Origin: Pyrinomonadaceae bacterium
GTDB lineage: Bacteria; Acidobacteriota; Blastocatellia; Pyrinomonadales; Pyrinomonadaceae
Direction: 5' to 3'
Assembly (NCBI GenBank): GCA_036387235.1
Contig: DASVUD010000028.1
Location: 3,129 to 27,128, forward strand
Length of the DNA: 24,000 nucleotides
The notes under the pieces were generated by a model, which worked only from the letters and a program-made list of their open reading frames with translations, was not told the DNA's origin and ran no database searches. The translations under genes and the position numbers were made by a program. This document shows, piece after piece, positions 2,619-23,045 of this stretch; position 1 is the first letter of the stretch; the number at the start of each line of letters is the position of its first letter.

Positions 2619-2693
2619 GTGAATCGTAAATCGTCAATCGTAAATAGAGAAAAACCGTCTTCTTCTATTTACGATTGACGATTTACGATTCAC
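2619..2693. repeat. Palindromic heptamer-repeat hairpin element, copy A (perfect 30-bp stem, 15-nt loop); probable terminator behind the S8 protease gene
   Basis: 2619..2648 (gtgaatc gtaaatc gtcaatc gtaaata ga) is the exact reverse complement of 2664..2693. The loop is gaaaaaccgtcttct. The element starts 10 nt past the protease stop (2704..2706 on the minus strand). It is AT-rich within GC-rich DNA. Confidence 0.8.
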
Positions 2694-2703
2694 TTCTCTG
2701 CCC

Positions 2704-5700
2704 TCACGGTTGGCCGAAACGGAGACGATACTCGGCCGAGTTGAGAAACGCGTTGACCATTTCGCGGGGGCTGACGCCGCGGTTGAGCGCGTTCAAGTTG
2801 TCCTGATAGCCTTGCGGTTCGGGCGTGCGGCGCAGGTAGCCGTAGTATTGCACGGCGACGAAGGCGCTGTTGAACTCGGCGGCCTGCACCTGATCCGAAT
2901 CGGCGATGGCGCGCAAGACCTGAGCGCGCGTCAGGAAGTTCGCGTCGAGTTGATTGGTAAAGGTCGCGGCCGTGAACGTCACGCGCGTGCCGCTATCGGG
3001 CGTGGACGGATCGGGCGTCGTCACGGAAGCGAGACCGTAGCGCGCGAACAAGGTCTGGACAAACTGCGCGTTCGACAAGTTGGCGTAAGCGCTCGCAAAG
3101 TCCGTCCGGGCGGTGAAGTTGCGCGCGAAGGCGGCGCGGCGCGCATAGACCTCCTGCTCGGTCGCCCCGGCGACGAAGCTCATGTCCGAGACGATCTCCC
3201 TGTATTCGGGCAAGCGACCGAAAGCCACTTTGTAGAAGCGGAAGACGTAAGCGCCTTTCAGACGAAACTCCGGCGCGCCGAAGAAGGCCGCCGACACGGC
3301 GATGCGGTCGCAGTCGGTCACGACTGACGGGCCGGTGTGAATGTTCGGGCAGCGGTTCAGGACGGCCGACCACGGCTCGCCCGCTTCCGGCTCGCGCGAG
3401 AGGAAGTCGAGATACTGCTGCCGGACGAAGAACGGGATGGAGTTGACGACCGGGTTCGGCACTGTGCCCGCGTCGTTATCCGTAATGGTGACGGTGGCGA
3501 CGCCCGGCGCGCCGAGCGTTGTGCCCGTGCCGACGGCGTCGCTCAGTTGAAGCTGGAAAGTCTCCGCGCCTTCGACGTGTGCGTCGTCGATGAGGGGCAC
3601 GGTGATCTCTTTCTCGATCTCGCCGCGCGCGAAGTTGAGCGTGCCGACGGTGGTGGCGAAGTCGCAGCGGGCATATGCCCCGCCGTTGTTGTTCGTCGTG
3701 TCGGCGCAGCCGACGGTGAAGGTATCGCTGTCGGTGGTGCGGTAGTTAACCGTGACCGTGCCGGTCGTGTCGCCGCCGCGCACGACTCTGAACGTAACGC
3801 GCCCGTCGCCTTCGCTCACAGGGCTGCTGTTAAAGGCCAACTGGACGGTGTTCGGCCCGGTCGGCGCGTTCGAGGCGGCGGTAAAGTTAGCGCCCTGATC
3901 CGAGATCAGGTTGGCGATGGTGATGCTCGCGGGCGTGTAGGTGAAGTTCGGGTGCGAGGGCGTGATCGTGTAAGAGAGATTGGCGGTCAGGCCGGTGAAC
4001 GAATAGTTGCCGTTCAGGTCGGCCATCGTCACGGCGCTGCGGCCGCCGCTCAAAAAGATCGTGGCCGGCGCGCCCACGCCGTTCGCGTCCGTGACGCGCC
4101 CGCTGATGGAGAAAAGCTGCACGACGCGCGGCGAGAAGGTGACGGTCTGCGCGCTCGTCAGACTGATCGGCTGCGCGCCCGTGCCGGTCAGTTCGCGCGT
4201 GTGCGAGGCGACGACGTAAGCGTCCGGCTCGCCGCCCGAAATGCCGACCACGGGAAAGACGCGCGGATTGTCGCCGTAGCGCGTGATGATCGTGCCGTCG
4301 TTGCGCAGTTCGATCTCGAAGTTAACGTTCTGGCGCGGCGACAAAAACGTGACGCCCTGCCAGCGGAAGATGATGCGCGCGCCGTCGGGCTGGATGACGT
4401 AGACGCCGCTGTCGGGGCGAATCGTCGTGTTGATGTCGATGTCGTCCCACAAGCCCGCGATCATCGTCTGGCCTTGCAAACCTTCGACGGTGCTCGGCAC
4501 GTCGTCGGCGTCGAGGTTCTCGCGGCGCGGGGGCGTGGAGAAATAGAGGACGCCGTTCGTGGAGACGGTCAGGTTGGTGCGCTGCGTGCCGTAGAACGGG
4601 AAGGCGAAAGGCAGAGTGTAACCGGCGTACTTGTCGTCGCCCGTGACGATGCTCGACCCGGTGATGGGCGTGAGCGATTGCGCCGCGCCGAGCGTGACCG
4701 TGTAAGGATCGCTGCCCGTGTTGACGGGAATCGTCACGGCGACGGAAGCCGTGCTTGAGTTGCCCGCGTTGTCGTAGGCGCGCAGTTGGATCGTGCCGCT
4801 GAAGTTGCGGAAGGGCACGTCAACCGTGACGGTCTGCTGCGTGCCCGCCGGGGCGGGGACGAGTGTGGTGGGCAAGAGAGTTCTGGCCTGCCCCGTCGAG
4901 TTGACGAAGAAGAAGTCGTAGTCGGCCACCGTGCCCGCGTTGCCGTCGTCGCCCGGCGCAGTCCAGGCGAGCGTGACGCTACGCCCCGTTTGTCCTTCGA
5001 CGCGGAGGTTCGCGGCGGCGGCCGGTGCGGTTACGTCGTTTTCGAGCGCGCTCGCCATGGCGTTGGCAACATTCAAGCGGCGGCCGGTCGTCGTTCTGGT
5101 TTCGAGCGCGGAGATGCGGTCGCCGGTGAAGGCGAGCACGCCGCGCAGTTGCGCCGCCGTGATCGAAGGGTTGGCGGCGCAGATCAGGGCGGCCGCGCCC
5201 GCGACGTGCGGCGAAGACATCGAAGTGCCGCTGAAGAATGAGTAGGTGTTGTTGGGCGTCGTGCTGAGGATGCTCGAACCGGGAGCGCCGATGCTGACGA
5301 CGCGCGCGCCGAAGTTGGAGAAACTCGAAAGGAAGTCGTTGCTGTTGGTCGAAGCGACAGCGATGACGTTCGGCACGTCGTAGTTCGCGGGGTAATCGGG
5401 AAAGCTGAAATTGTCGCGCGCTTCGTTGCCGGCGGCGACGACGAAGAGGATGCCCGTGCTGTTGAGTTGGTTGATGGCGTCGAGCGCGGCCAGAGATTTT
5501 CCGGGGCCGCCGTAAGAGTTGTTCAGCACGCGCAGGTTGACGCCCGCCTGACGCAGGCGGCGCGCGTAGTTGTAACCGTTGATGATGTTGGCGACCGAGC
5601 CGCCCGTGGGGCCGAGCACCTTCATCGAGACGATGCTGACATCCCAGTTGACGCCCACGACGCCGAGGCTGTTGTTGCCCTTCGCGCCGATTGTCCCGGC

Positions 5701-6471
5701 GACGTGCGTGGCGTGGTCGTCGCCGTCTTCGTTGTCGAAGACCGTCCGGTCGTTGTGATGAAAGTCCCAACCGTTGATGTCGTCGATGAAGCCGTTGCCG
5801 TCGTCGTCAACGCCGTTGCCGGCCACTTCGCCGGGGTTCGTCCAGATGTTCGCGCTCAGGTCTTGATGGTTGACATCCACGCCGCCGTCGAGCACGCCGA
5901 TGACGACGCTCTTGCTGCCCGTCGTCGTGTCCCAAGCGGCGGGCGCGCCGATGCGGTTCAGGCCGTACAACTCGCCGCTCGTGTAGCGCGGGTCGTTCGG
6001 CGTGCGCGTGGCGTGCCAGATGTAGTTCGGCTCGGCGTAGAGCACGTCGGAGCGCGCGGCGAGTTCGGTGACGGCTTGGAGCGTGTGCGCCGGGTCGACT
6101 TTGGCGAGGCGCAAACCGCGCACCGTCTCCGAGCCGCCGAAACTTTCGATGCTGATTTCGCTCGCGTCCTCGGCCGCGCGCAAGGGGAGCGCGAGGGCTT
6201 CGGCCGTCTTGGCCGCCGTCTCCGTGCGGAAGCGGACGAGCACTTCGCCGGGCACGAACTCAGCGCCGTCGATGATGTTGGCCTGTCCTTTCGCCGGACT
6301 CTGCGAGCGTGTCGCACGTTCTTCTTCCTGCTGCGATGTGGACGCGGACGCGCCCGCGTTGAAGTAGGGCAGCGCGGCGACGGTGAAGGCGAATAAGCTG
6401 AGGGCTACAACGAAGAGGCGCGCATGACGCACGCGGGTGGATGATTTCCGGCCTAACGGGGAACGAAACAT
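2704..6471 (-). CDS. Secreted multidomain S8 (subtilisin-family) serine peptidase, 1255 aa
   Basis: Longest ORF in the window. ATG 6471 has GGAGA 8 nt upstream. Signal peptide: ARLFVVALSLFAFTVAALPYFNAGASA. Subtilase motifs: VIGVLDGGVD (Asp195), DDHATHVAGTIG (His253), NNSYGG (oxyanion Asn), FSGTSMSSPHVAGAAAL (Ser417). C-terminal modules: FN3-like (aa ~480-580); a FAFPFYG...IAGLWDDID module (aa ~613-745); a carboxypeptidase-regulatory-like sandwich (ISGRVTDANG...NGNYSF); Calx-beta-like (aa ~875-1000, ending VTITDND); two DUF4214-like segments (FFVRQQYLDFLSREPE, AVQYYGYLRRTPEPQGY). Confidence 0.95.
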   Translation of the reverse strand: MFRSPLGRKSSTRVRHARLFVVALSLFAFTVAALPYFNAGASASTSQQEEERATRSQSPAKGQANIIDGAEFVPGEVLVRFRTETAAKTAEALALPLRAAEDASEISIESFGGSETVRGLRLAKVDPAHTLQAVTELAARSDVLYAEPNYIWHATRTPNDPRYTSGELYGLNRIGAPAAWDTTTGSKSVVIGVLDGGVDVNHQDLSANIWTNPGEVAGNGVDDDGNGFIDDINGWDFHHNDRTVFDNEDGDDHATHVAGTIGAKGNNSLGVVGVNWDVSIVSMKVLGPTGGSVANIINGYNYARRLRQAGVNLRVLNNSYGGPGKSLAALDAINQLNSTGILFVVAAGNEARDNFSFPDYPANYDVPNVIAVASTNSNDFLSSFSNFGARVVSIGAPGSSILSTTPNNTYSFFSGTSMSSPHVAGAAALICAANPSITAAQLRGVLAFTGDRISALETRTTTGRRLNVANAMASALENDVTAPAAAANLRVEGQTGRSVTLAWTAPGDDGNAGTVADYDFFFVNSTGQARTLLPTTLVPAPAGTQQTVTVDVPFRNFSGTIQLRAYDNAGNSSTASVAVTIPVNTGSDPYTVTLGAAQSLTPITGSSIVTGDDKYAGYTLPFAFPFYGTQRTNLTVSTNGVLYFSTPPRRENLDADDVPSTVEGLQGQTMIAGLWDDIDINTTIRPDSGVYVIQPDGARIIFRWQGVTFLSPRQNVNFEIELRNDGTIITRYGDNPRVFPVVGISGGEPDAYVVASHTRELTGTGAQPISLTSAQTVTFSPRVVQLFSISGRVTDANGVGAPATIFLSGGRSAVTMADLNGNYSFTGLTANLSYTITPSHPNFTYTPASITIANLISDQGANFTAASNAPTGPNTVQLAFNSSPVSEGDGRVTFRVVRGGDTTGTVTVNYRTTDSDTFTVGCADTTNNNGGAYARCDFATTVGTLNFARGEIEKEITVPLIDDAHVEGAETFQLQLSDAVGTGTTLGAPGVATVTITDNDAGTVPNPVVNSIPFFVRQQYLDFLSREPEAGEPWSAVLNRCPNIHTGPSVVTDCDRIAVSAAFFGAPEFRLKGAYVFRFYKVAFGRLPEYREIVSDMSFVAGATEQEVYARRAAFARNFTARTDFASAYANLSNAQFVQTLFARYGLASVTTPDPSTPDSGTRVTFTAATFTNQLDANFLTRAQVLRAIADSDQVQAAEFNSAFVAVQYYGYLRRTPEPQGYQDNLNALNRGVSPREMVNAFLNSAEYRLRFGQP

Positions 6472-12693: not shown

Positions 12694-12734
12694 GTTCAAT
12701 TTTTAGGTGAGTTCAATTTTAGGTGAGTTCAATT
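12694..12734 (+). repeat. AT-rich tandem direct repeat, 16-17 nt unit x ~2.5
   Basis: gttcaatttttaggtga (12694..12710), gttcaattttaggtga (12711..12726), gttcaatt (12727..12734). The preceding attaggcgt (12685..12693) resembles a unit end and contains the lpxB stop TAG (12687..12689). Confidence 0.7.
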
Positions 12735-12756: not shown

Positions 12757-12832
12757 GAAACCACGAATTCACACGAAGCCACACTAAACTCTTCTTCGTG
12801 TTGTTTCGTGTGAATTCGTGGTTTCGCTTTTT
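12757..12832. terminator. Hairpin element copy D; bidirectional intrinsic terminator between convergent lpxB and lpxD
   Basis: gaaaccacgaattcacacgaa (12757..12777) pairs perfectly with ttcgtgtgaattcgtggtttc (12805..12825). An inner acac/gtgt extension leaves the loop taaactcttcttc. A TTTTT tract follows on the + strand (12828..12832), and GGTTTTGTT follows on the minus-strand reading. Confidence 0.75.
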
Positions 12833-21238: not shown

Positions 21239-21948
21239 AACTCGCCATCATCGGCAATGGCGCGATGGGCAAGCTCGTCCGCGCGCTGGCCGAAGCGGAA
21301 GGCCACGAAATCGGGCGCATCCTGACTTCCGAGGACGCCGGGCGCAGCGCCGTCGAACTGGCCGAACTGCTCGGCGGCCACGATGCGGCCATAGATTTTT
21401 CCGTCTCCGGCGCGGTGCTCAAAAACGTCGAAGCGGCAGCGCGCGCGGGCGTCCCGCTTGTCGAAGGCACGACCGGCTGGAACGCACATGAAGCGGAAGC
21501 GCGCCGCATCGTCGAAGCACACGCGGCGGGCGCGCTTCTGTTCGGCGCAAACTTCTCCATCGGCGTCAATCTCTTCTACCGCATCGTCGCGCGCGCGGCC
21601 GAACTGTTCGCCGCCACCGATTACGCACCCTTCATCGAAGAAGCGCACCACGCGCGCAAACGCGACGCGCCTTCGGGGACGGCCATCAAACTGCGCGACC
21701 TGCTGGCCGCGCAGATCGCGCGCGACATCCCCGTCGTCTCGACGCGCGCCGGGCACATTCCCGGCACGCACCGCGTCGGCTTCGACTCGGCCGCCGACCA
21801 GATTACCCTGACGCACACGGCGCGCACCCGCGAGGGCTTCGCCTCCGGCGCGCTTCTCGCCGCCCGCTGGCTCAAGGACAGACGCGGCGTCTACGAATTT
21901 TCCGAGGCAATGGATGAAATAATAAAAGACGTGAATCGTGAATCGTAA
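21235..21948 (+). CDS. dapB: 4-hydroxy-tetrahydrodipicolinate reductase DapB
   Basis: MKLAIIGNGAMGK (Rossmann fold), VEGTTGW, IEEAHHARKRDAPSGTA and HTARTREGFASGALLAARWL. The GTG start overlaps the upstream stop (GTGA). The last 5 codons and the TAA lie inside hairpin element B. Confidence 0.95.
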   Translation: MKLAIIGNGAMGKLVRALAEAEGHEIGRILTSEDAGRSAVELAELLGGHDAAIDFSVSGAVLKNVEAAARAGVPLVEGTTGWNAHEAEARRIVEAHAAGALLFGANFSIGVNLFYRIVARAAELFAATDYAPFIEEAHHARKRDAPSGTAIKLRDLLAAQIARDIPVVSTRAGHIPGTHRVGFDSAADQITLTHTARTREGFASGALLAARWLKDRRGVYEFSEAMDEIIKDVNRES

Positions 21949-22006
21949 ATCGTGAATAGATTTAAAACTGCTTTCTTCTATTCACGATTGACGATTTACG
22001 ATTTAC
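21931..22006 (+). repeat. Palindromic heptamer-repeat hairpin element, copy B (dapB-dapA junction)
   Basis: Left arm gtgaatc gtgaatc gtaaatc gtgaata ga (21931..21960) pairs with the right arm 21977..22006: 27 Watson-Crick pairs, 2 G-U pairs and 1 A-G mismatch. The loop is tttaaaactgctttct. The right arm is nearly identical to that of copy A. Confidence 0.8.
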
Positions 22007-22024
22007 GAAAGTTGAGGTTGAAGG

Positions 22025-22936
22025 ATGACGTTACAAGTCGAATGGCTGCGCGGGTGCGCGACGGCGTTGGTGACGCCGTTCGGGGCGGACGGGTCGGTTG
22101 ACGAGGAGCGTCTGACGGCGCTCGTCGATAGACAGATCGAGGGCGGCGTCCGTCTGCTCGTGCCGTGCGGGACGACGGGTGAGAGCGCGACGATGACGGA
22201 AGAGGAAGACCGTCTCGTGATTCGTCTGACGATTGAAGCGGCGCGCGCGAGGGGTGCGCGCGTCATCGCGGGCACGGGCAGCAATTCGACCTCGGCCGCT
22301 ATCGAATACGCGCGCGCGGCGCGCGCGGCGGGCGCGGATGCCGTGCTCGTCGTCGCGCCCTTCTACAACAAGCCGACGCAGGAAGGCTTGTACGCGCACT
22401 TCCGCGCGGTGGCCGAGTCGGTCGCGAGGTTGCCCGTCGTCATCTACAACGTGCCGGGTCGCACCTCTTCAAACATCGCGGCGGCGACCGCGCTCCGGCT
22501 CGCGCGCGAAGTGGAAAACATCGTCGCCGTCAAAGAAGCCTCCGGCGACCTGTCGCAGATCATGGCGATCTTGCGCGAGCGTCCCGCGAACTTTCGCGTC
22601 CTCTCCGGCGACGACGCCTTGACGCTGCCCATGCTCGCGCTCGGCGCGGACGGCCTCATCTCCGTGGCCTCGAATGAGACGCCGGATTTGATGGCGCGCC
22701 TGTGCGAACTGGCGCTCGCCGGCGAGTGGGACGAGGCGCGCGCGCTCCACTTCCGCCTGCTGCCTTTGATGGAAGTCAACTTCATCGAGTCGAGTCCGGG
22801 GCCGGTCAAGGCGGCAATGAAGATGTTGAATTTGCTCGAAGAAAATTTCCGGCTCCCGCTCGTCCCCATTCAAGACAAGAGCCGCGCGCGCGTGCGCGAA
22901 GTGTTGACGGAACTCGGACTACTGACGAAACGATGA
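22025..22936 (+). CDS. dapA: 4-hydroxy-tetrahydrodipicolinate synthase DapA
   Basis: ALVTPF, LLVPCGTTGESATMT, VIAGTGSNST, YNKPTQEGLYAHF, VIYNVPGRT and VAVKEASGD (catalytic Lys motif). GAAGG RBS before ATG 22025. Confidence 0.95.
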   Translation: MTLQVEWLRGCATALVTPFGADGSVDEERLTALVDRQIEGGVRLLVPCGTTGESATMTEEEDRLVIRLTIEAARARGARVIAGTGSNSTSAAIEYARAARAAGADAVLVVAPFYNKPTQEGLYAHFRAVAESVARLPVVIYNVPGRTSSNIAAATALRLAREVENIVAVKEASGDLSQIMAILRERPANFRVLSGDDALTLPMLALGADGLISVASNETPDLMARLCELALAGEWDEARALHFRLLPLMEVNFIESSPGPVKAAMKMLNLLEENFRLPLVPIQDKSRARVREVLTELGLLTKR

Positions 22937-22947
22937 ACGGGAGACCG

Positions 22948-23018
22948 GTAAATAGTGAATGGTAAATGGTGAATGGTGAAAAAACAGTCTTCTACCATTT
23001 ACCATTCACCACTTTTAC
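22948..23018 (+). repeat. Palindromic heptamer-repeat hairpin element, copy C (dapA-dapD junction), GGTRAAT variant
   Basis: gtgaatggtaaatggt (22955..22970) pairs perfectly with accatttaccattcac (22994..23009). An outer gtaaa (22948..22952) / tttac (23014..23018) helix lies beyond a small internal loop. The apical loop is gaatggtgaaaaaacagtcttct. Confidence 0.7.
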
Positions 23019-23045
23019 TTCATCGTTTTTCATTAAGGGACTTTG

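Follow-up and report, generated by a model that had tools for sequence, protein, structure and literature searches.

Tandem heptamers have been known in bacteria since 1990, as the short tandemly repeated repetitive (STRR) sequences that Mazel et al. reportedly described in cyanobacteria in that year; those of heterocystous cyanobacteria include CCCCAGT, TTGGTCA and CAACAGT. Such repeats have been used for strain typing, and both their origin and their function are unexplained. A second puzzle is posed by the intervening sequences (IVSs) of 23S rRNA, some of which, in Coxiella burnetii (helix 45), Leptospira, Brucella and Xanthomonas, bear an open reading frame (ORF) for S23p (PF05635), the four-helix-bundle "23S rRNA intervening-sequence protein". 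The two puzzles meet in the genome from which the DNA analyzed here was taken, the genome of a soil acidobacterium of the Pyrinomonadaceae, with 5.22 Mb, 62% GC and 54 contigs (hereafter the source genome). The window, i.e., the whole stretch of 24,000 nucleotides, corresponds to positions 3129-27128 of its contig C28, and contains at 2612-2700 an AT-rich hairpin built of heptamers, copy A. By analogy with the IVSs, copy A is probably, though by no means certainly, the gene-less shell of an IVS-like S23p cassette, which would form an RNase III-type stem that punctuates operons. Arms, unit order and junction are the same whether or not an S23p gene is present, and this in two phyla, which provides a concrete and testable origin for the repeats. 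Operon punctuation of the RNase III type would be a candidate role in a phylum with scarce canonical terminators.

In Coxiella the IVS has a 28-bp terminal stem that is cut by RNase III in its middle, and the S23p ORF lies within; IVSs take the place of helix tetraloops, and S23p, which has no known function, assembles as a toroid of five four-helix bundles (PMC4990558). The elements of the source genome resemble these IVSs in their stem of about 28 bp made of long terminal inverted repeats (here four heptamers), in the existence of a full-length form with the S23p ORF in the loop, in their insertion at hairpin tips (tetraloops for the IVSs, the centres of older hairpins here), and in their sporadic distribution across phyla. 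The IVS stem is cut by RNase III (PMC4990558), and such a cleavage is predicted here. The elements differ from the IVSs in that they lie between protein-coding genes and not in rRNA, in that more than 99% of the copies in the source genome carry no gene, and in that their arms are tandem heptamers of many interchangeable families.

Inverted heptamer arrays are already known as a class. They were described with the unit GGGAATC in Xanthomonas and GGGGA(C/T)T in Nostoc (Rehm et al. 2015, PMC4692102); the Xanthomonas-type arrays have mostly four units, form 70-75 convergent inverted pairs per genome, lie 28 nt from the upstream ORF as against 160 nt to the next one, are rare between divergent genes, and have no known function (PMC4692102). 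The tandem 7-nt units, convergent inverted pairs and intergenic placement that define this class are all found in the elements of the source genome, which also share the modal arm of four units, the proximity to the upstream ORF and the scarcity between divergent genes. However, the Xanthomonas-type arrays are G-rich and were interpreted as G-quadruplex formers, whereas those analyzed here are AT-rich, fall into at least 8 families and are paired in 81% of the cases, and no link to S23p was reported for the former. Heptamer simple-sequence repeats (SSRs) as an over-represented group, the STRR sequences and the inverted GGGAATC arrays have all been published, and are functionally unexplained (PMC4692102). 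The STRR sequences are alike in that several tandem heptamer families are dispersed in the intergenic DNA of one lineage, but they have other sequences, belong to another phylum, and are mainly direct arrays, with no hairpin in their definition. Membership in this group was rejected, the units here being GTNAATC, GGTNAAT, GTGACNA, GAGGTNA and others, in an acidobacterium. The TAACTGA repeats of Beggiatoaceae, cyanobacteria and Bacteroidetes (MacGregor 2015, PMC4679880) are likewise one heptamer amplified between the genes of unrelated phyla by no known mechanism, but they are direct repeats just before start codons, whereas the arrays here are inverted pairs just after stop codons. Finally, repetitive extragenic palindromic (REP) sequences act as mRNA stabilizers and partial terminators (bioRxiv 10.64898/2026.03.23.713779). 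The proteobacterial REP, BIME and REPIN elements share with those analyzed here their hundreds of extragenic palindromes, the location at gene 3′ ends and in operons, and the lack of target-site duplications; the latter differ by having no GTAG/CGTC tag, no REP-associated tyrosine transposase (RAYT), and stems about twice as long that are made of tandem units. A literature search returned nothing relevant for the exact repeat strings, no description of such hairpins in Acidobacteria, and no paper tying heptamer arrays to S23p. The S23p connection is the part worth following.

The 5′ arm of copy A (2619-2648) consists of the units GTGAATC, GTAAATC, GTCAATC and GTAAATA followed by GA, and is the exact reverse complement of 2664-2693, as claimed in a preliminary description of this DNA that reported a perfect 30-bp hairpin at 2619-2693. 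In random sequence of 24 kb, an inverted repeat with 30 perfectly matched bp around a short loop would be expected about 1e-12 times (24000 x ~46 loop sizes / 4^30). The arms enclose a tip of 15 nt (2649-2663, gaaaaaccgtcttct), and the palindrome runs on imperfectly to 2612-2700 (44-nt arms, 86%). The whole element, to which no strand was assigned, is thus composed of an A-rich foot (caaagcc, 2612-2618), the 5′ arm of four GTNAATC units with the end AATAGA, the tip, and the 3′ arm followed by a T-rich foot; the arms were delimited by the sequence, and the foot, junction and tip by the family consensus. The stop codon (2704-2706, minus strand) of a gene for a 1255-aa protein (2704-6471) is found 10 nt from copy A, and the next minus-strand gene beyond the element begins at 2498. 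With its 30 bp the stem has the length of an S23p cassette stem (about 28 bp), but copy A holds no PF05635 ORF; furthermore, the copies lie between protein-coding genes and not in helix 9, 25 or 45 of 23S rRNA. For this reason we class copy A as a derivative or relative of the cassette that lacks the gene, and not as a full cassette.

An inverted-repeat scan of the source genome (stem of at least 16 nt, loop of at most 45 nt), to which the counts below refer unless another genome is named, yielded 1080 loci, 536 of them with period-7 arms. These 536 hairpins make up 0.77% of the genome, in agreement with the high copy number that had been expected from the window alone; their stems have a mean of 27 nt, their median length is 75 nt, and their folding energy is about -45 kcal/mol on either strand. 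Tandem arrays of at least three units were found 833 times with period 7, as against 96 times with period 6 and 13 times with period 8, and an inverted partner was located at most 160 nt away for 670 of 830 period-7 arrays (81%). At least 8 heptamer families are represented among the hairpins: GGTNAAT (133 hairpins), GTNAATC (116), GTGACNA (51), GAGGTNA (49), AAGTCNC (32), GGGATGA (26), TTAGCNN (18) and AAAGGGG (16). Their polarity is invariant, the named unit forming the 5′ arm in 441 of the 441 classified hairpins. Each family has one variable position, which in GTNAATC and GGTNAAT is G, A or C (C in 15-20% of the units) and T in at most 0.5%. The arms have mostly four units (about 28 bp; 82 of the 116 GTNAATC hairpins), and the rest mostly three. 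Their GC content is 33-45%, the stems are 94% Watson-Crick paired, and the variable position agrees between the two arms in 73% of the units (38% expected). Among 162 four-unit GTNAATC arms the variable positions follow the order A-G-A-G/A in 55, with AGAG observed 31 times when about 5 were expected under unit independence, and AGAA 24 times. A foot (aAAAgcC), which resembles the 5′ half of the tip, and an inner junction (AATAGA then aAAAaC.GtTTTt) are also common to the loci. Because unit order is shared, arm length is narrow, and foot and inner junction are conserved, the copies descend from a master pattern and did not arise by local slippage alone; slippage acts on top of this descent, as seen in the 20-44% of hairpins whose arms differ by one unit. 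One hairpin (C3:20241-20334) is a hybrid, its GTNAATC 5′ arm pairing with a GGTNAAT-type 3′ arm at the cost of one C-C mismatch per unit, which suggests arm-by-arm conversion between the sister families or recombination between elements. A further hairpin family, with arms containing AAAGGCGCAAAGG, accounts for about 38 loci (e.g., C3:67771 and C34:439194).

The source genome contains a single match to PF05635 (C34:150589-150900, 133 bits). The S23p gene (C34:150556-150915) is co-directional with its neighbours, between the stop of a nuoA-like gene and the start of a nuoB-like gene. TTAGCNN arrays in inverted orientation flank it, with AGCTATTAGCTGTTAGCCGTTAGCTGTTAGCT at one end and the mirror image at the opposite end, and its stop codon falls inside the 3′ arm. 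S23p genes were present in 18 of 19 genomes of the genus, with 1-8 copies each, and 26 of 30 sampled S23p genes of the genus were bracketed by inverted arrays belonging to the families of the gene-less hairpins (match of at least 12 nt). In the relative G014 such a cassette reads TCGTAAATCGTGAATCGTAAATCGTAAATAGAGAAAACCA-ATG ... TAA-CTATTTACGATTTACGATTCACGATTTACG, and on its left side GTAAATC, GTGAATC and GTAAATC are followed by GTAAATAGA and then by GAAAACCA-ATG; it has four units in the master order AGAA and the inner junction of copy A. Gene-bearing counterparts with the same arms and junction were found in G014, in the relative G011, in a complete Pyrinomonadaceae chromosome, in Terrimonas and in Flavisolibacter. 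The left junctions of GTGACNA, GAGGTNA and GGATGA cassettes, in turn, resemble the gene-less consensus of their own families, and S23p-bearing counterparts are found heptamer family by heptamer family. Furthermore, the sequence that immediately precedes the S23p start has its counterpart, in gene-less copies, in the purine-rich left half of the tip, and this correspondence could explain why the tip follows transcription (see below). The tips of copies A-C measure 15-23 nt, with no ORF inside, and no S23p remnants were detectable in the gene-less copies, the match on C34 being the only one in all of the source genome. A PDDEXK_3 cassette was absent from the source genome.

GTNAATC arrays of at least four units were found in many phyla. 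A special status of the sporadic ones, in viruses and in other phyla, was rejected: they are generic, since a control heptamer with reversed sequence reaches about half their frequency (24 viral contigs with arrays, as against 53 for GTNAATC). Genomes with hundreds of copies are another case. Counts of the three-unit pattern reached 227 in a Flavisolibacter metagenome-assembled genome (MAG), 197 in a Chitinophagales MAG and 181 in the cultured isolate Terrimonas ferruginea DSM 30193, as against 0 for the control. GGTNAAT is amplified too in the Flavisolibacter MAG and in T. ferruginea DSM 30193, and no amplification of GTGACNA or GAGGTNA was seen in these two genomes. The Flavisolibacter arms have the polarity of the source genome, the GTGAATAGG junction and GGTNAAT outside GTNAATC, and enclose loops of 70-190 nt with nested hairpins inside. 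Seven S23p genes were tested from Terrimonas, Chitinophagales, Flavisolibacter and one complete Pyrinomonadaceae chromosome, and all seven were bracketed by inverted arrays of about 30 nt that lie 384-506 nt apart, two of them with GTNAATC arms. A recent transfer of the GTNAATC-S23p cassette across phyla was not supported, because the proteins of Bacteroidota and Pyrinomonadaceae with GTNAATC arms did not group together. In these Chitinophagaceae (Bacteroidota), GTNAATC and GGTNAAT are amplified 80-230 times per genome. The arrays are often single-armed in Terrimonas (L045, L073 and L287) and in the Chitinophagales MAG, and some Flavisolibacter element loops (L166 and L169) contain GCGCAAAGG repeats, look-alikes of AAAGGCGCAAAGG.

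The placement of the hairpins was analyzed with the 3790 genes called by our own codon-usage caller. Hairpins were present in 417 of 2773 tandem spacers (15%), 86 of 477 convergent spacers (18%) and 31 of 486 divergent spacers (6%). In tandem spacers they begin a median of 5 nt past the upstream stop codon, so that the stop-codon proximity noted in the window holds genome-wide, and they end a median of 17 nt before the next start; 310 copies are nearer to the upstream stop and 102 nearer to the next start. The stop codon peaks 8-10 nt before the first unit, as a T[AG]A that runs directly into the A-rich foot, or falls within the first units. The hairpins sit flush behind stop codons inside operons.

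Two further heptamer hairpins lie in the dap genes of the window, and one of another type lies between lpx genes, all three at the places given in the preliminary description. Copy B (21930-22007; GTNAATC family, 31-nt arms, 90%) occupies the dapB-dapA spacer; the dapB stop (21946-21948) falls within its first units, and dapA begins 17 nt downstream. Copy C (22948-23018; GGTNAAT family) occupies the dapA-dapD spacer and begins 12-19 nt past the dapA stop; its hairpin proper extends from 22950 to 23014 (21-nt arms, 90%), with one additional unpaired unit on the left side. Copy D (12757-12825; arms of 28-31 nt, about 90%) lies between the convergent lpxB and lpxD genes, 57-68 nt from the two stops. 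All four copies are thus within 70 nt of a stop codon, as had been stated, copy B even containing one. They had also been described as one palindromic family of four members, with a conserved loop, heptamer stems in copies A-C, and copy A as the founding copy; the heptamer stems of copies A-C are confirmed, but the four do not make up one family. Copies A and B belong to the GTNAATC family with its 116 hairpins, copy C to the GGTNAAT family with its 133, and copy D has no 7-nt period (period-7 score 0.24) but belongs to a separate, unrelated family based on CACGAA, which has about 88 copies in the genome and repeats every 10 nt or so. What had been taken for a conserved loop is a loosely defined pseudo-palindromic tip of purines and pyrimidines, found in either orientation, and its presence on the plus strand in all four copies is due to chance, since genome-wide the GTCTT tip was found 103 times on the plus strand and 92 times on the minus strand.

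The dapB-dapA hairpin is present, at an equal distance from the dapA start, in the genomes of the genus that keep this junction, with a heptamer that varies by lineage (GTNAATC, GTGACRG, GTGACGA or GTGATGA). In the GTNAATC lineage the arms differ nearly only at the variable position, whereas the tips are unalignable; at dapB-dapA, 6 of the 7 positions per unit are kept across species, and the tip is inverted between the relatives G010 and G006. The statement that the stems vary by paired changes around a constant loop is hence the reverse of what orthologues display, the tips diverging faster than the arms and even flipping. A second conserved hairpin site follows gene g15. At the dapA-dapD junction most relatives have an overlapping stop/start ATGA where the source genome has copy C, a lineage-specific insertion; dapA lacks about 7 C-terminal codons, lost to the structure that holds copy C. 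The sequences at 22928-22937 (AAACGATGAA) and 23019-23028 (TTCATCGTTT), to neither of which a strand was assigned, pair with each other around copy C, and are what is left of an older hairpin of GATGAA type, which the relative G012 has kept and in whose centre copy C is nested. Such nesting is frequent: 60 hairpins are enclosed by an outer inverted repeat (10 nt or longer), as against 6 in a shuffled control. In nearly all cases this outer repeat comes from a different family, in the consistent order GTGACNA/GATGAA outside GGTNAAT outside GTNAATC. It follows that new hairpins arise inside older ones, at the centre. With regard to annotation, the hairpins provide stop codons and reshape gene ends, as observed for dapB and dapA. 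At the level of the family, the pattern GTRAATCGTNAATCGTNAATCGT, with 214 occurrences in the source genome, was also found in most other genomes of the family (21 of 24), but in 0 of 16 genomes from the remaining families of the class.

Taken in order, a cassette consists of the A-rich foot (often with the upstream stop), about four heptamers, the AATAGA junction, the purine-then-pyrimidine tip and the mirror image of all this; in the full-length form the PF05635 gene replaces the tip, a design like that of the ORF-bearing IVSs of 23S rRNA. Copy A is read as an RNase III-type processing stem because its four heptamers amount to 28 bp and the source genome encodes an RNase III. In the proposed scheme the hairpin would be transcribed along with the flanking genes, and its 28-30-bp near-perfect stem would behave as an IVS stem: RNase III would cut the polycistronic RNA between the cistrons, the stem halves would shield the new ends, and the hairpins would in this way uncouple genes from their neighbours and tune them. 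Since the stem directly adjoins the stop codon, the upstream gene is likely to experience effects like those of REP elements. As for the mode of spread, we infer that new copies may arise at the DNA level without a transposase, by a process directed at the centres of hairpins or the ends of genes, their arms then being altered by 7-nt slippage. A bolder proposal, which we hold to be unlikely although it deserves to be stated, is that each heptamer family would be the footprint of its own S23p paralogue, which would recognize cognate 7-nt arrays, the S23p pentamer together with host enzymes seeding or maintaining the hairpin shells at gene ends. If this were true, the elements would represent an autonomous/non-autonomous system without a transposase, of which the STRR, Xanthomonas and Chitinophagaceae heptamers and the rRNA intervening sequences would all be manifestations.

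Several observations weigh against the cassette-shell reading. To our knowledge no biochemical activity of S23p has been reported, and the cleavage of the stems by RNase III is drawn entirely from the analogy with the IVSs. The source genome has hundreds of GTNAATC, GGTNAAT, GTGACNA and GAGGTNA hairpins and one S23p gene of another family, so that any dependence of the hairpins on S23p is putative. In an S23p tree the nearest neighbour had the same arm type in 24 of 33 cases (2.3 with shuffled labels), but each S23p type is one orthologous locus within the genus, so that plain linkage could explain the association; co-variation of S23p and arms was hence rejected, as confounded, as a proof of specific recognition. 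An orthologous spacer, between the start of an rfbA-like gene and the end of a neighbouring one, harbours a 433-nt GTNAATC-armed S23p cassette in G014 (L271:1437-1869) and in G011, whereas in the source genome it harbours a gene-less TTAGCTG-type hairpin with unequal arms of 2 and 5 units (C1:70582-70647). A simple loss of S23p in place is therefore not supported, the hairpin being of a different family; the site is conserved, with its content replaced. Finally, there is no direct signature of selection on the structure of the sense RNA, since a preference for G-U pairs on the sense strand was absent (216 G-U-type and 249 A-C-type mismatches) and the sense RNA was not the more stable strand, the bias being slightly opposite (168 vs 213). 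The only strand asymmetry is the tip, AAAAC..GTCTT lying 97 times in the sense of the flanking genes and 59 times against it; its orientation tracks the direction of transcription (52:26 vs 33:45) and not GC skew (p=0.57), which speaks for the RNase III reading, and no replication-strand bias of the tip was detected against GC skew in the source genome.

If the arrays were simple-sequence repeats born locally, by slippage expansion and template-switch mirroring, neutral or weakly useful, and derived from neither a cassette nor a mobile element, the landing of S23p among them would be incidental. Heptamer SSRs are indeed over-represented in bacteria (PMC4692102), and the one-unit differences between arms, the single-armed arrays of Terrimonas and Chitinophagales and the frequency of the reversed control heptamer in viral contigs all fit such an origin. 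We nevertheless find it quite improbable, for it does not account for a master unit order common to loci, arms confined to 3-4 units, the conserved foot and inner junction, the invariant polarity, the presence of the same junction in the S23p cassette, or the exclusion of T from a variable position that admits C in 15-20% of the units. Transcription termination is another function that such stems might serve, possibly in both directions, in place of canonical terminators that are scarce in this GC-rich genome. In a simple scan of our own, canonical terminators (GC stem and T-tract) turned up in no more than 2-3% of the tandem spacers and 12% of the convergent ones. On one strand they co-occurred with a large AT-rich hairpin less often than expected (1 of 249 vs 31 of 856, p=0.004), but neither the opposite strand nor the convergent spacers gave a significant avoidance. 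The position just past stop codons, the depletion in divergent spacers, and flanks that are A-rich upstream and T-rich downstream point in the same direction. However, a T-run of at least four follows only 18% of the period-7 hairpins, and the arms, with their 33-45% GC, are not short GC-rich stems, so that the canonical intrinsic terminator was rejected and the preliminary view that the hairpins are not generic terminators was upheld. Most copies, moreover, end a median of 17 nt before a start in the same direction, with no room for a promoter (e.g., dapB-dapA-dapD and nuoA-nuoB), and the stems, with about 28 bp and -45 kcal/mol, greatly exceed the size of a terminator. Termination thus appears even less probable as their role than a local SSR origin. 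Rfam, proposed at the outset as a check, identified no family for the hairpins: the sole match in the window that passed the gathering threshold was one tRNA, and the sub-threshold matches were generic miRNA-precursor hairpins.

An action on the chromosome itself, as a cruciform or as a putative array of binding sites for S23p or a nucleoid protein, would agree with the symmetric mismatch spectrum without G-U bias, with the 6 of 7 positions per unit kept between species, which goes beyond the needs of pairing, and with the exclusion of T. The toroid formed by the S23p pentamer also speaks for it (PMC4990558). This DNA-level role has to contend with a tip orientation that follows transcription and not GC skew, and with a placement linked to stop codons and not to any chromosomal coordinate; the relationship of S23p to Avd, a nucleic-acid-binding protein, is counted in its favour. 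We rate it as improbable, between the SSR origin and termination. Mobilization by a RAYT, i.e., an IS200/IS605-type Y1 transposase, would account for high-copy extragenic palindromes at gene 3′ ends without target-site duplications, and many genomes of the family (34 of 40) and of the genus (13 of 19) do carry Y1_Tnp genes (PF01797). The search for such a gene suggested in the preliminary description found none in the source genome, however, and 6 of the 19 other genus members lack it as well, including G011 with its 158 GTNAATC matches. None of 7 sampled Y1_Tnp genes of relatives had a heptamer array within 1.5 kb, and GTAG and CGTC were found in 22 and 17 of the 536 hairpins, respectively, which is the background level and bears out the earlier remark that the GTAG head is missing. 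A REP/REPIN-RAYT origin was therefore rejected and is, in our view, very improbable. The miniature inverted-repeat transposable element was rejected too, because no target-site duplication surrounded the terminal inverted repeats (with all offsets allowed, the best k-mer match was seen in 11 of 349 copies, as against 2 in the control). Most genera of the family have Y1 (IS200/IS605-type) genes in large numbers, up to 16 per genome (G020-G075).

The (A)CACGAA family to which copy D belongs (about 88 loci) includes a related octamer form (CTTCGTGT) that is present in both polarities, and a CACGAA-type motif is also nested within GTNAATC elements of the Flavisolibacter MAG (L168). Upstream of copy D, directly past the lpxB stop, the window contains about 2.5 tandem units of 16-17 nt at 12694-12734 (aggtgagttcaatttt), and the lpxB-lpxD spacer of the relative G004 holds a different tandem repeat of about 16 nt.

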